Assembly (NCBI GenBank): GCA_964493715.1
Contig: CAZBPC010000028.1
Coordinates: forward strand, 3,726 to 34,689
Length of the DNA: 30,964 nucleotides
Direction of reading: 5' to 3'
Source: an uncultured archaeon
Lineage (GTDB): Archaea > Asgardarchaeota > Lokiarchaeia > Sigyniarchaeales > SOKP01
In this document: piece after piece, positions 16,868 through 30,964 of the stretch
How positions within the stretch are numbered: position 1 is the stretch's first letter
Layout: each line of letters begins with the position of its first letter
Translations under genes and position numbers: made by a program
The notes under the pieces: generated by a model
What the model saw: only the letters and a program-made list of their open reading frames with translations
What the model was told of the DNA's origin: nothing
Databases searched by the model: none

Positions 16868-18313
16868 TTGCCAATTGGTATTAAAAGCTATGGTGCTTAT
16901 TTACCTAAATACATGCTACCCAGGGAACTCATAGCGAAAGCATGGGACTTTCCGATAGTTCCGGGGACTAAAGCAGTAGCTATGGAGGATGAGGACAGCT
17001 TGACAATGTCAGTAGAAGCAGGACTCGATTGCTTAGAGGGAATTGACCCAAAGACAGTTGATGGAATATTTTTTGCTTCAACAACTCAAGTCTATACTGA
17101 GAAAGATTCAGCCTCTTTAATCGCTACTATTCTCGATATGAGAGGAGATATCATTACCGCAGATTTTACGGACTCAACTAAAGCTGGAACAACAGCTTTA
17201 ACTAGAGCTGTAGATGCGATTAAAGCCAATAAGGATATCAAGAGTATTTTGGTAGTTGCAGCTGATACGAGAAAACCCGAACCCTCAACAATGTGGGAGT
17301 TTGGATTTGCAGATGGTGCTGCCGCTTTACTCATAGCGGATGAAGAAAATATCCCGATCTCGATCGATGATTACTATTCAGTTTCAGCGAACGTGACTGG
17401 ACCATGGAAAAGAGCAGACAAGGATGAGTTTATCAGAACTTTTGAAGTAAAGATGGATGCAAAATTTTACGTGGAAAGCATCACCAAAGTTATGTCTGAA
17501 GTCTTGAAACGTAATAATTTAAACCCTTCCACAGACATCCAAATTGCTGCATATTATTATAATAACCCCAGAATGCATAGCACGATATCCAAGATGATGA
17601 AATTTGGCCAAGGAGTAGCTCAGAACAGCTTGTTCTTTCAAGTAGGTGATATGGGAACGCCAATGCCTTTCATGCTTCTCATTGCTAGCTTGCGAAGACC
17701 TAAACAAGATGACAAGATCATAATGGCCGGTTTTGGAGATGGTGCTGATGCTATTCTCATGCAGGTTCGAGATAAAGATGGTGTCAGGGATATCGGTAAA
17801 GGAAGAATGGGTTTTGTCGGTCACCAAAAATCGATGACCCTTCTAAATAATTACAACAAGTTCATCGAGTTTAAGGAATTGCTTGAGAAGGACAGATATA
17901 CGCGAAAAAGTTCAGCTGTCATTATCTGGCGTGATACTCCTTCAGTTTACAAGTGGTATGGTGTAAAATGCAAAAGTTGTGGAACCGTGCAATATCCTAA
18001 CCTTTCACGAGCTTGTTCCGTATGTAGAGCTGATGATCAATTAGAACCCATTAAACTTGCAAAGAAAGGAGAACTCTTTACATTTACCCTTGATCACTTG
18101 GTTGGTGGAGCTTATCTTAATACGCCCGTCCCACGATGCGTTATAGACCTTGAAGGCGGTGGAAGAGTGTTAGTTAACATGACTGAAATCGAGAACCCTG
18201 AGGAAAATGTCAAGATTGGAATGAAACTCGAGATGACCTTCAGAAAGGAACACGAAGGTGCTGAATTTAAAAATTATTATTGGAAATGTCGACCCGTGAG
18301 GGGGAGACCTTAA
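16868..18313 (+). CDS. HMG-CoA synthase/KASIII-like protein fused to a DUF35 (Zn-ribbon + OB-fold) domain
   Basis: GIKSYGAYLP, DEDSLTM, DGAAALLI, VGDMG, GFGDGADA; C-terminal CKSCG..YP...CSVC and OB fold (FTFT, DLEGGGR, IGMKLEMTFR, YYWK). TTG start after GAGGT. Confidence 0.9.
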   Translation: MPIGIKSYGAYLPKYMLPRELIAKAWDFPIVPGTKAVAMEDEDSLTMSVEAGLDCLEGIDPKTVDGIFFASTTQVYTEKDSASLIATILDMRGDIITADFTDSTKAGTTALTRAVDAIKANKDIKSILVVAADTRKPEPSTMWEFGFADGAAALLIADEENIPISIDDYYSVSANVTGPWKRADKDEFIRTFEVKMDAKFYVESITKVMSEVLKRNNLNPSTDIQIAAYYYNNPRMHSTISKMMKFGQGVAQNSLFFQVGDMGTPMPFMLLIASLRRPKQDDKIIMAGFGDGADAILMQVRDKDGVRDIGKGRMGFVGHQKSMTLLNNYNKFIEFKELLEKDRYTRKSSAVIIWRDTPSVYKWYGVKCKSCGTVQYPNLSRACSVCRADDQLEPIKLAKKGELFTFTLDHLVGGAYLNTPVPRCVIDLEGGGRVLVNMTEIENPEENVKIGMKLEMTFRKEHEGAEFKNYYWKCRPVRGRP

Positions 18314-18314
18314 A

Positions 18315-18320
18315 GGAGGT
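18315..18320 (+). promoter_or_regulatory. Shine-Dalgarno GGAGGT of the thiolase gene
   Basis: GGAGGT 7 nt upstream of ATG 18328 and just after the upstream stop codon, consistent with an operon. Confidence 0.8.
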
Positions 18321-18327
18321 AAAAAAA

Positions 18328-19606
18328 ATGGTTAGACATGGAATTAAAGATAAAGTCGCAATTATCGGTTGCGACATGACAAAATATGGAGAACGATGGG
18401 ATAAGTCACAATACGACCTGCTCTTCGAAGCATTTCAAAGCGCGACGAAGGATGCTGGAATTAAGAAGGATGAGGTGGATGCGAGCTGGGTTGGGATATT
18501 TTACTACTTTACTGGACTATCAGGTGCGATGGTAGAAGATATCCTAAAGTTGGATGGTAAACCCGCTACTCGCGTGGAAAATTACTGCGCTTCGGGCATG
18601 GATGCGTTCCGTAATGCATGCTTTGCCGTTGCTTCTGGTGCATATGACGTTGTCCTCGCCTGTGGAGTGGAGAAACAATATTAACATTTTGTTAATATGC
18701 TCTAGACTCATGGACGAGGGCGGTAGTGGTTTACCCGGATTTACCCAATTCGGACATCCGCTATATCCGACGCCTTCCGCGCCAGCAATGTTTTCGATGG
18801 CGGCCACAAGATGCTTTCACGAGTTCGGATGGACGAAGGAAGATCTTGCCCGAGTCGCGGTAAAAAACCATGATAATGGGTCTCATCATCCAAAAGCACA
18901 TTTTCGAAGCCCAATTTCTTTAGAAGCTGCGATGAAAGCCCCCATGATTGCGGACCCTCTCGGTAGATTCGACTGCTGCGCAAAAATTTAATCACTTAGA
19001 TAAAATTACGCAATGTCAGACGGAGCTGCCGCGTTGATCCTCACCAGACCAGACCTCGCCGAAAGTTATGCCCATGCGGATGACTACGTGCTGGTAAAAG
19101 CCAATGCAATTTCGGCTCACACCAATTTTCCGTGGTACGTGCCACCTGGAGGGCCTGGAGCGGATTTCACTGCATTTCCATCAACGGTAAAAGCGGCGAA
19201 ATACGCCTATCAAGAAGCAGGAATTACCAATCCGCGGAAAGAAATCGATGCTGCAGAAGTCCATGACTGTTTTACGATCACAGTTGATTACATTGCGTAA
19301 TTAACGGTTAATGAACTTATAAACTGTCAGGACCTGCAATTCTGCGACCGAGGGAAAGCAGCTGAAGAACTTAAGAACGGAACGTTCAACTGGGATGGCG
19401 AAACCGCCGTGAATCCATCGGGAGGACTAAAAAGTTTTGGTCATCCTATTGGAAGTACTGGCTGTCGGATGCTCACGGAAATCACCAAGCAAATCCAAGG
19501 ACGTGCTGAGGGAAGGCAAGTGCCCGATGCTAAGATCGGCTTATGCCATAACCTTGGCGGTGCGTTTAGCGTCTGTGCCACGACAATATTAGGTCAACGA
19601 GATTAA
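18328..19606 (+). CDS. SCP2-type thiolase (acetyl-CoA acyltransferase) split by three BHB introns; exons 18328-18674, 18706-18983, 19014-19281, 19312-19606; 395 aa spliced
   Basis: Exons sum to 1188 nt (395 aa + stop). Motifs ENYCASG, GVEK/LMD, KNH.NG..HPKAHF, FDCCA/MSDGAAA, EVHDCFTIT/ELI, NPSGGL..FGHPIG.TG and HNLGG are all intact after splicing. Confidence 0.9.
18675..18705 (+). other. Putative BHB intron 1 (31 nt) in thiolase mRNA
   Basis: ACAATATTAACATTTTGTTAATATGCTCTAG. Central helix GGAG(18669-72)/CTCT(18700-03), bulges AAA and AGA, stem ATATTAAC/GTTAATAT, loop ATTTT. Removal gives GAG AAA CTC ATG (EKLM) and repairs a frameshift. Confidence 0.85.
18984..19013 (+). other. Putative BHB intron 2 (30 nt) in thiolase mRNA
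   Basis: AAATTTAATCACTTAGATAAAATTACGCAA. Central helix GCGC(18978-81)/ACGC(19008-11) with one C-A mismatch, bulges AAA and AAT, stem AATTTaATC/GATaAAATT, loop ACTTA. Removal gives TGC GCA ATG TCA GAC (CAMSD). Confidence 0.78.
19282..19311 (+). other. Putative BHB intron 3 (30 nt) in thiolase mRNA
   Basis: AGTTGATTACATTGCGTAATTAACGGTTAA. Central helix GATC(19276-79)/GGTT(19306-09), bulges ACA and AAT, stem GTTGATTAC/GTAATTAAC, loop ATTGC. Removal gives ATC ACT GAA CTT (HDCFTITEL). Confidence 0.87.
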
Positions 19607-19630
19607 ATTTCTTTTTTTCTATTTTTTTTA
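19607..19630 (+). terminator. Oligo-T archaeal terminator candidate after thiolase
   Basis: ATTTCTTTTTTTCTATTTTTTTTA immediately after the stop codon. Confidence 0.5.
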
Positions 19631-19823
19631 ATGGAATCTACCGGTAAAAATAAGAATTTACGGGCTAAATTCATTGTAAGCTTTATATTCTATACAGAGG
19701 ATAAATATTTATATTTGTTTATATAAGATAAAGTTAAGAAATTCAACTTCAGAGGTAAAAATTATTATTGAACACGAGAAGGAAAACATTGGAAAGCCAA
19801 AAAAAGCGGGTTTAGTTTTAACC

Positions 19824-20174
19824 GTGATTGGGGCGATTTGGATGTTCAGATCATTGGTGTTTATGGTCCCTGACATTTACAAAATTGCTTTAATGGTAGG
19901 GATTATAATTTCAATAATTGGGGGGATCATGGTGATAAAAGGTAAAAAACCTGGAAGGTTAATTTCTTTAATAGGTGGAATTGTAAATCCCATTCTCATT
20001 ATAATGGTTGTATACAACCCTGCTCTTTGGTTCTATGACTTTTGGTACGGTTTACTGAATCACTTCATATTTATGTTTTTGACAATTTATGGATTCGCTA
20101 TTTTTGGGATTTCTTTTTTGTTGTTATTGATCGGTGGGATTCTTAGCTTTAAGATAGAAGAATTACAGATATGA
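19824..20174 (+). CDS. Small multi-pass membrane protein; true start may be TTG 19768 with a frameshift in the A7 run at 19799-19805
   Basis: Hydrophobic 116-aa ORF with repeated I.GGI motifs; SD-like AGAGGT at 19751 precedes an out-of-frame TTG at 19768. Confidence 0.65.
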   Translation: MIGAIWMFRSLVFMVPDIYKIALMVGIIISIIGGIMVIKGKKPGRLISLIGGIVNPILIIMVVYNPALWFYDFWYGLLNHFIFMFLTIYGFAIFGISFLLLLIGGILSFKIEELQI

Positions 20175-29748: not shown

Positions 29749-30964
29749 ATGTTTGTCGAATACTTTTACTATCTCAAAGATAGATTGCCCGTATCCCTAA
29801 CGGAATACATGACCCTAATCGAAGCATTAGACAAGGGACTCATCCATAACATGGTAGAATTCTATTACATCTCTCGCTCACTCCTCTGCAAGAATGAACA
29901 CCATTTTGACATCTATGACATCGCTTTTGCGAACTTTTTTAAAGACGCATCGCTCAAATTTCCCGATGAGATTAAACAACAAATCTGGGATTGGCTAGAT
30001 AAAAAACTCGACCCACAAGAATTACCCGATAATTTCCAGCAATTCATGAGTGAAATCTTCGACCTTGAAGAACTCCAAAAACAACTCGATGAATTGCTCA
30101 AAAGACAAGACGAAGACCATGATGGCGGCGATCACTGGATCGGAACTCAAGGCGAATCGCGGTTTGGCCATTCTGGACAAAATCCAATGGGCATGAAAAT
30201 CGGTGGGTCGGCTGGGATGCGAATGGCTATCCAAATCGCCCAAAAAAGAATCTTTGCCGATTACAGAAAAGATGTCGTCTTAGATACCCGCCAAATCAAG
30301 GTCGCACTCAAGCGCCTCAAAAAACTTGAAGAAATCGGCAAGCAAGATGAATTAAACATCGATAAAACCATCGATCAAACGGCTAAGAATGGCGGAGATA
30401 TTGATCTAATTTTCGAAAAAAAGAGAAAGAATAACGTGAAGCTGATATTGCTAATGGATGTCGGTGGCTCCATGACTCCTTATGCTCACCTCGTAAACCT
30501 CCTATTTTCTGCCGCAAACAACATGTCGCACTGGAAAAAGTTTGAGCACTTTTATTTTCACAACTGCCTTTATGAGACTCTCTATTTCAACGCACAGAGA
30601 AATCCGGAAGAATCCATTCCATTTGAAGAATTTTTGAAAAAATATAACAGTAAATATAAAGTAGTCGTGGTGGGCGACGCCGCAATAATTTAATCGAATT
30701 CCGATTAAGTTGTGAGGGCAAGTTGGGAGCTCACCGAAAGATATGGGAGTATCTACTATTATCATCGGAACGAATTGCCCGGTGCGTATTATATACGCGA
30801 ACTTGCGAACCATTTCAAGAATAATGTCGTATGGCTTAACCCAGAAATCATACGGTTGGAGTGGGTGCCGTGGACGCGGAAGATAATTTCAAGCATCATC
30901 CCGATGTTCCACCTTACAGTGGAAGGGATTGAAGAAGCCATGGATTTTCTACGGAAGGGCGGTA
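29749..30964 (+). CDS. VWA-domain (CoxE-like) partner of MoxR, split by one BHB intron; exons 29749-30686 and 30717->30964 (runs off the window end)
   Basis: HDGGDHWIGT.G.S.FGH.G, LLMDVGGSM and YFHNCLY. After intron removal the frame reads VGDAAMASWELTERYGSIYY...VWLNPE...MFHLTVEGIEEAMDFLRKGG, open to the window end. Confidence 0.9.
30687..30716 (+). other. Putative BHB intron 4 (30 nt) in VWA mRNA
   Basis: AATTTAATCGAATTCCGATTAAGTTGTGAG. Central helix CGCA(30681-84)/TGTG(30711-14), bulges ATA and AGG, 9-bp stem ATTTAATCG/CGATTAAGT, loop AATTC, outer GC/GC pairs. Removal gives GCA ATG GCA (GDAAMA). Confidence 0.88.

Follow-up and report, generated by a model that had tools for sequence, protein, structure and literature searches.

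An uncultured Asgard archaeon carries, at positions 18328-19606 of a 30,964-nucleotide (nt) stretch of contig CAZBPC010000028.1 (contig positions 3726-34689; assembly GCA_964493715.1; hereafter the window), a thiolase gene that is broken up by three short inserts. These inserts are very probably functional bulge-helix-bulge (BHB) introns in the pre-mRNA of what is predicted to be an Asgard acetoacetyl-CoA thiolase. The preliminary description of the window, made from the letters alone, had proposed one gene in four pieces with three introns. This remains the best reading of the locus, given the BHB register of the insert boundaries, a ratio of nonsynonymous to synonymous substitution rates (dN/dS) of 0.018 and a spliced protein that needs no extra insertions or deletions (indels). 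In addition, one RNA contig shows that exon 3 is cut out at both of its predicted ends and ligated into a circle.

On the forward strand, the region 18271..19606 contains four stop-to-stop open reading frames (ORFs; 18271-18684, 18548-18991, 19004-19300 and 19301-19606). Their Pfam matches keep the order of the profiles: Thiolase_N 1-114, Thiolase_N 155-197, Thiolase_C_1 14-51 and Thiolase_C_1 51-143. Removal of the three inserts (31, 30 and 30 nt) joins the four exons (Table 1) into 1188 nt, which correspond to 395 codons and a stop codon with no internal stops. The NYCASG, HDCF and GHPIG motifs, described earlier as intact, are all present in the spliced 395-aa protein and start at its residues 84, 291 and 340, respectively (0-based). 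The G+C content of the inserts is 20-30%, compared to 49% for the thiolase exons and 32% for the window. The four exons are also strikingly even in size, as had been pointed out before; under three uniformly random cuts, the probability that all pieces reach at least 268 nt is (1 - 4 x 268/1188)^3, or approximately 0.001, a calculation made post hoc. Neither Rfam nor ARAGORN gave a match anywhere in the window.

The geometry of each insert was scored with a central helix of four bases ending two before each cut, 3-nt bulges that span the cuts and an inner helix that begins at the second intron base; the cut falls after the second bulge base. For all eight thiolase introns scored in this way (from five genomes), the best of 17 shifts was the frame-restoring position. 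Five of them have all four central pairs and three have three of four, with 8-10 inner pairs throughout. All three introns of the window thiolase show the motif. Intron 1 combines a complete central helix (18669-18672/18700-18703, 4/4) with bulges at 18673-18675 and 18704-18706 and an inner hairpin of 10 pairs at 18676-18699. Intron 3 is built alike, with its central helix at 19276-19279/19306-19309 (4/4), bulges at 19280-19282 and 19310-19312, and an inner part at 19283-19305 that consists of a 9-bp stem and a 5-nt loop. Intron 2 is a relaxed BHB with a central helix at 18978-18981/19008-19011 (3/4), bulges at 18982-18984 and 19012-19014 and an inner hairpin at 18985-19007, which contributes 8 inner pairs next to 3/4 outer pairs. 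The minimum-energy fold of intron 3 displays the 3-nt bulge, the 4-bp helix and a 3-nt unpaired stretch directly (z -2.0); the fold of intron 1 is close to a BHB (z -2.74) and that of intron 2 is weak (z -0.94). Within the gene region, 26 of 34,320 combinations of position and length pass a loose BHB criterion, including the three true boundaries. The motif itself is common in such A+T-rich DNA; the improbable part is the occurrence of three BHB motifs exactly where the frame is restored. The exon and intron boundaries drawn in the preliminary description coincide with the exact BHB cut sites, and two of the six are matched to the base by the RNA contig described below.

The same geometry is found in a tRNA gene of the source genome (labelled G000; other G labels denote related genomes, L labels related loci and C labels contigs). 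ARAGORN reported 27 tRNA genes in this genome, 12 of them with an intron. In tRNA-Gly(GCC), the cut scored in the same way falls after base 37 (canonical 37/38), with central 4/4 and outer 5/5 pairs, and its 30-nt intron with a 9-bp stem has the build of thiolase introns 2 and 3. The thiolase cut position thus agrees with that of canonical tRNA introns, both by the tRNA-Gly register and, at two sites, by the RNA joint. As a separate observation, only 27 tRNA genes were reported by ARAGORN although G000 is scored 100% complete, which suggests that many of its tRNA genes are interrupted at places that ARAGORN cannot read. The genome also encodes the candidate splicing enzymes, namely two genes with the EndA domain PF01974 (102 and 68 bits), located at C5:38084 and C58:18731, and one RtcB locus (PF01139, 484 bits). 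According to a published study, Asgard archaea have an (alpha-beta)2 EndA with a broad-specificity loop (PMC5829648), and by analogy the two EndA genes of G000 presumably form an enzyme of this type. A repeated mobile element resembling miniature inverted-repeat transposable elements was ruled out as the source of the inserts, since no repeated copies occur in the genome: each of the four introns in the window (the three of the thiolase and the one in the VWA/CoxE-like gene, Table 1) matches only itself below E 0.2 in G000.

Evidence at the RNA level comes from assembled contigs of three RNA runs (X22, X23 and X24), analyzed together with one DNA run (X3). A 231-nt contig from X22 (depth 9.5) runs through 19082-19281 and continues at 19014-19044; its letters at the joint are all unambiguous, and it has one mismatch. 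The cover of the gene in this run is confined to exon 3. To the base, the joint 19281>19014 unites the predicted 3' cut of intron 2 (between 19013 and 19014) with the predicted 5' cut of intron 3 (between 19281 and 19282). The DNA run, which derives from a different sample, covers 18655-19495 including all three inserts with 0 differences and contains no such joint. Two things follow: the inserts are not an assembly artefact, and the RNA between the two predicted cuts was freed on both sides and closed into a circle by ligation. DNA of the window is present in salt-marsh and marine sediment metagenomes. As for the other two RNA runs, X24 yielded only one contig over 18263-18518, 94% alike and derived from a relative, and X23 gave no cover. 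Stretches of the gene that no RNA contig covers are uninformative.

The joint also bears on the idea that the ribosome, rather than a nuclease, copes with the inserts. Programmed translational bypassing, in which ribosomes hop over a hairpin in the message, is known from phage T4 gene 60 and from the mitochondrial 'byp' elements. The thiolase inserts resemble such elements in their length of approximately 30 nt and in their hairpin, and at intron 2 the last exon codon recurs just before the landing site. However, matching take-off and landing codons were not seen at introns 1 and 3 when read by eye, the RNA is cut and ligated at the boundaries, and the inserts have the structure and the register of tRNA introns. 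Bypassing is hardly credible as an explanation of these inserts.

Removal by the tRNA splicing machinery would proceed as follows. The thiolase would be co-transcribed with the upstream gene for an HMG-CoA synthase/DUF35 protein. At each intron, the last bases of the upstream exon would pair with the last bases of the intron in a 4-bp helix flanked by a 3-nt bulge on either strand, the remainder of the intron folding into a hairpin. EndA, presumably the broad-specificity (alpha-beta)2 form made from the two paralogues, would cut either side behind the second base of the bulge, and RtcB would then join the ends that carry a 2',3'-cyclic phosphate and a 5'-OH. The productive outcome would be a four-exon mRNA for the 395-aa enzyme, and exon 3 self-ligated into a stable circle would be a by-product. 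We infer that EndA and RtcB are the acting enzymes and that the remaining four sites are cut as well. Because no exon-exon junction was seen, ordered joining of the exons, often enough to make protein, is likewise something that we only infer.

Comparison with related genes points to a functional protein. The spliced sequence was aligned by tblastn to 50 related loci, 47 of which contain the thiolase. In 38 of these 47, the match is a single high-scoring segment pair, end to end, with 0 extra nt; the remaining nine comprise three with a 12-nt deletion, one distant locus with 18 additional nt and five with 29-31-nt inserts of their own. The spliced protein therefore needs no further indels. Relative to G022, which has 89% nucleotide identity, dN is 0.013 and dS is 0.71, giving a dN/dS of 0.018. 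For four other relatives the ratio is 0.024-0.044, while dS is saturated against G016 and gives no ratio; two intact genes compared with each other gave 0.036. By these substitution rates, the thiolase exons are under strong purifying selection.

These results decide against a decaying gene that has picked up small hairpin-forming insertions. Three breaks of the frame and the mostly uninterrupted relatives are what such a pseudogene would be expected to display. In contrast, there are no other stops or indels, and dN/dS is 0.018-0.044 against five relatives rather than near 1. Introns 1 and 3 have kept their stems unaltered in genome pairs with widely diverged or saturated synonymous sites. 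Every insert lies exactly in BHB register, no repeated copies of the inserts exist in the genome, and essential single-copy genes of a genome scored 100% complete carry the same kind of insert (see below). The earlier statements that the gene has no other lesions and is unlikely to be a pseudogene are borne out, and decay is a very improbable account of the locus.

A second comparison, of 23 orthologous loci drawn from 41 related genomes, shows how the thiolase introns are distributed. Three inserts were found in G000, two in G016 and one each in G007 and G022, and the other 19 loci, some of them partial, have none. Intron 1 occupies the same site in G000 and G016 and is nearly identical in both, with differences in the loop only, although the exons are just 76% identical. 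Intron 3 is common to G000 and G022 and differs only in the loop. Site 2 is occupied in G000, G007 and L037, where the stem sequences differ and the pairing is retained. A fourth intron site occurs in relatives only (G016, L060 and L035), with three different sequences that each contain a hairpin. The fourth-site introns of L060 and L035 have two irregularities in the stem, and the inner score of L060 is only 5. The statements on compensatory changes at site 2 and at the fourth site come from reading the alignments together with the geometry scores. A MAFFT alignment of 16 introns taken from different sites lost the structural register. The L035 fourth-site register was set by hand after misplacement by the script, and the misaligned locus L073 was disregarded.

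Flanking intron 1 (18652-18674 and 18706-18723), 23 + 18 = 41 exon bases show no difference between the G000 and G016 alleles, whereas away from the intron about every third base differs; the genes overall are 76% identical. The closest relative, G022, is without intron 1 and differs at bases of the intron-1 outer helix. The identical flanks could reflect a structural constraint on the exon sequence or a lateral transfer with co-conversion. One further locus deserves mention: the HMG-CoA synthase gene of L035 (DATKTP010000068.1) is 92% identical and its thiolase contains an intron, yet the contig is labelled Candidatus Deferrimicrobium, a bacterium. This label probably stems from mis-binning in the public record.

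Table 1. Exons and introns of the thiolase gene and other features of the window
Feature	Position	Strand	Remarks
Exon 1, 347 nt	18328..18674	+	ATG after a purine-rich ribosome-binding stretch; carries the NYCASG cysteine motif
Intron 1, 31 nt	18675..18705	+	Frame-shifting
Exon 2, 278 nt	18706..18983	+	Thiolase
Intron 2, 30 nt	18984..19013	+	In frame, contains stops
Exon 3, 268 nt	19014..19281	+	Also recovered as a circle from an RNA library
Intron 3, 30 nt	19282..19311	+	In frame, contains one stop
Exon 4, 295 nt including stop codon	19312..19606	+	GHPIG; Thiolase_C_1 E 7e-25
HMG-CoA synthase-like domain fused to DUF35-type Zn-ribbon and OB fold	16868..18313	+	Uninterrupted 481-aa ORF; Pfam ACP_syn_III, zf-ChsH2, OB_ChsH2_C
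Fourth window intron, 30 nt	30687..30716	+	In VWA/CoxE-like gene (29749 to window end); central 4/4, inner 9; fold z -3.42

Inserts of the same kind interrupt other genes of the genome. Altogether, homology confirmed 10 introns in 8 genes of G000, a count that is a lower bound. The RtcB gene (C2:12136-12164, minus strand; L092:1170-1198) contains a 29-nt frame-shifting insert in BHB register between positions 47 and 48 of PF01139, and its removal restores a well-conserved block. The split is also present in G001 and was not seen at that site in the other matching genomes, a few of whose matches are truncated. RtcB would thus be needed to splice its own mRNA. Inserts of 29-30 nt were further identified at C26:4049-4077, C39:8748-8777, C44:26027-26056 and C19:23103-23132 in genes for ribosomal protein uS8, NAD synthase, a class I aminoacyl-tRNA synthetase and an AMP-binding acyl-CoA ligase, respectively. 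In all four, the Pfam profile is continuous across the insert (for instance, 3-143 and 144-242 in NAD synthase), and the genome has no second uS8 locus. The split synthetase on C44 appears LeuRS-like by eye.

Two more cases complete the count. At C120:4198-4228, a 31-nt insert with complete central and outer helices (4/4 pairs each) interrupts a paralogous thiolase, whose counterparts in relatives are 422 aa long; the insert lies approximately four bases from the intron-3 position of the window thiolase. This proximity is either a parallel gain where the exon sequence can form the motif or chance. The VWA/CoxE-like gene at the end of the window contains the fourth window intron; its orthologues in G002, G008 and G011 have 474-aa frames without interruption, and 324 residues of the G002 protein correspond to 334 codons of the window, which amounts to 30 extra nt. 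A VWA paralogue in G000 (C118:2689-2901, minus strand) has two stops inside the match. Left out of the count as unconfirmed were an alpha/beta hydrolase (C2:119236-119265), which has no upstream Pfam match, and a thiolase-like gene on C145, as well as scan matches on C117, C41, C53 and C124 that were judged by eye only. Two further candidates, C18:36517-36551 (between Hydantoinase_A and AA_kinase) and one on C13, were dropped as ordinary gene junctions.

Several observations weigh against splicing of the thiolase as described. No exon-exon junction or intron circle was present among the contigs of the three RNA runs; the sole RNA form recovered is the exon-3 circle, an off-pathway product known from one contig of one run, and RNA libraries may contain DNA. 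Intron 2 has only three of four central pairs besides its low fold score (z -0.94), introns 1 and 3 have weak outer helices (1-2 of 4 pairs), and the minimum-energy folds of introns 1 and 2 adopt a slightly different register. Finally, set against a mirror-image control, a genome-wide scan for BHB motifs combined with ORF fusion showed no excess (2675 vs 2767 and 910 vs 880), and with bulge-base filters the numbers were still even (63 vs 65). The motif alone is therefore not diagnostic in a genome of 31% G+C, and the cases outside the thiolase rest on homology.

The same RNA result would suit a different role of the introns. EndA might cut the inserts with a mostly destructive or regulatory outcome, the fragments circularizing or decaying with little or no thiolase made, so that the inserts would be endonuclease-dependent off-switches. 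The only RNA product seen, a circular exon 3, cannot be used in a complete mRNA, no exon-exon junction appears in the RNA contigs, and there are three paralogous thiolase genes in the genome. However, a circle outlasts an mRNA, and dominance of the circle among the contigs is expected because it is the more stable molecule. The dN/dS of 0.018 at a dS of 0.71, with intron 3 in both genomes compared, demands that protein is produced. None of the paralogues exceeds 48% identity over exon 4, and one is split as well. The same inserts also interrupt uS8, present as a single gene, and RtcB, and failure to express either should be lethal. We consider the off-switch unlikely and retain productive BHB splicing as the explanation of the thiolase inserts.

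The thiolase starts 15 nt past the stop codon of the upstream 481-aa gene, and this gene pair is common to 47 of the 50 related loci. The closest named records with the upstream gene are metagenome-assembled genomes (MAGs) labelled Promethearchaeota, Promethearchaeia, or Hermod-, Hod- and Thorarchaeota. They place the source in the Loki/Promethearchaeia group of Asgard archaea, in agreement with the Lokiarchaeia named in the preliminary description. With the intact orthologue L036:4461-5645 as query, the best solved match is the acetoacetyl-CoA thiolase 6esq/6et9 (E 1e-61), ahead of SCP2 thiolases. The earlier assignment as a 395-aa SCP2-type thiolase is qualified accordingly, the closest solved relative being the archaeal acetoacetyl-CoA thiolase 6esq. 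We take 6esq to be the three-protein complex of thiolase, HMG-CoA synthase and DUF35 protein. At the gene level, the window contains the parts of this archaeal system, that is, the thiolase fold, the Cys and His motifs and the domains of the neighboring gene. With 6esq/6et9 as the best solved relative and the HMG-CoA synthase/DUF35 gene upstream, the enzyme is predicted, from family knowledge and gene context, to be an acetoacetyl-CoA thiolase, the first enzyme of the mevalonate pathway. Three other thiolase matches in G000 are paralogues with at most 48% identity to exon 4, and an intact second copy of the orthologue was not found in this genome. The operon (17000-20000) has a G+C content of 40-49%, compared to 31% for the genome, and is the sole such island in the window. 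Strong constraint on codons or a foreign origin may account for this composition.

The mechanism itself is already known from the cbf5 pre-mRNA of Crenarchaeota, for which a BHB intron is described (Watanabe 2002, Yoshinari 2006, Yokobori 2009; PMC2738675, PMC7714728, PMC5829648). The cbf5 and thiolase introns share a short length within the coding frame, the BHB at the borders and a patchy presence across related species, and the cut of the cbf5 intron by a two-subunit EndA would be a further likeness. Unlike cbf5, with one intron in one gene, the present genome has three introns in one gene, at least 10 introns in at least 8 genes, an Asgard host and an exon circle. As of 2020, cbf5 and one case in a 5' untranslated region (UTR) were the only known archaeal mRNA BHB introns, according to one article (PMC7714728). 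The same text describes the latter as a BHB intron in the 5' UTR of the Haloferax volcanii HVO_1309 mRNA (PMC7714728). It likewise makes an mRNA a substrate of the archaeal splicing endonuclease; however, it is single and lies in the untranslated leader, leaving the frame uninterrupted, whereas the thiolase introns break the coding frame.

In Asgard archaea, BHB introns are on record for tRNAs, with heavily interrupted genes and repeated lineage-specific gains (bioRxiv 10.64898/2026.10.13.758758, main text). The introns reported here have the same motif, the same presumed enzyme, the same mode of repeated lineage-specific gain and, compared with the tRNA-Gly intron, the same 30-nt build. The main text of that study deals with tRNA genes only and does not mention mRNA (bioRxiv 10.64898/2026.10.13.758758), and the intron-rich families that it names are Freyr-, Jordi- and Atabeyarchaeaceae rather than the present lineage. 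Circles made by an EndA cut and ligation of the ends of the released piece are known as archaeal circular RNAs and as metazoan tRNA intronic circular RNAs (tricRNAs; PMC3326292, PMC6614914). The known circles of this type are introns, rRNA intermediates and small RNAs, whereas here a coding exon between two introns is circularized. In this respect the exon-3 circle resembles eukaryotic back-splicing, although the chemistry is different.

A eukaryotic counterpart is the unconventional splicing of HAC1/XBP1, in which Ire1 cuts the mRNA and RtcB or Trl1 ligates it. RtcB is named together with XBP1 splicing in one paper (PMC8718801). HAC1/XBP1 splicing, like that proposed for the thiolase, removes a short intron from a coding frame by protein enzymes without a spliceosome, with RtcB joining cyclic-phosphate and 5'-OH ends. 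HAC1/XBP1 differs in its endonuclease, its stem-loop signal, its single regulated intron and its eukaryotic host. The preliminary description knew of no multi-intron archaeal mRNAs. Indeed, we found no report of a multi-intron archaeal protein gene or of BHB introns in Asgard mRNAs in the literature searched, subscription journals and supplements being outside the search; the intron kind itself was known from cbf5. What is new is therefore the number of three introns per gene, their spread over housekeeping genes including the ligase, the exon circle and the Asgard host.

Taken together, this Promethearchaeia lineage is probably in the midst of a spread of BHB introns into protein genes, with at least 10 introns in at least 8 genes, up to three per gene, and exon circles as a by-product. 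The identical exon flanks in distant intron-bearing alleles hint at lateral spread of introns or at selection for the ability to be spliced. The thiolase indicates that protein genes with several introns can exist in prokaryotes closely related to eukaryotes. If the wider spread is real, the prokaryotes nearest to eukaryotes sustain interrupted genes through splicing by proteins alone, without a spliceosome. Gene callers would then systematically break or miss such genes in Asgard MAGs, which would affect pathway and phylogenomic inferences. EndA and RtcB would be essential for the expression of housekeeping proteins, RtcB included, which creates a bootstrapping dependency, and exons would be circularized without a spliceosome. 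The lineage would offer a living system, in the group closest to eukaryotes, for the invasion of coding genes by introns and for the requirements that their removal places on the exons.

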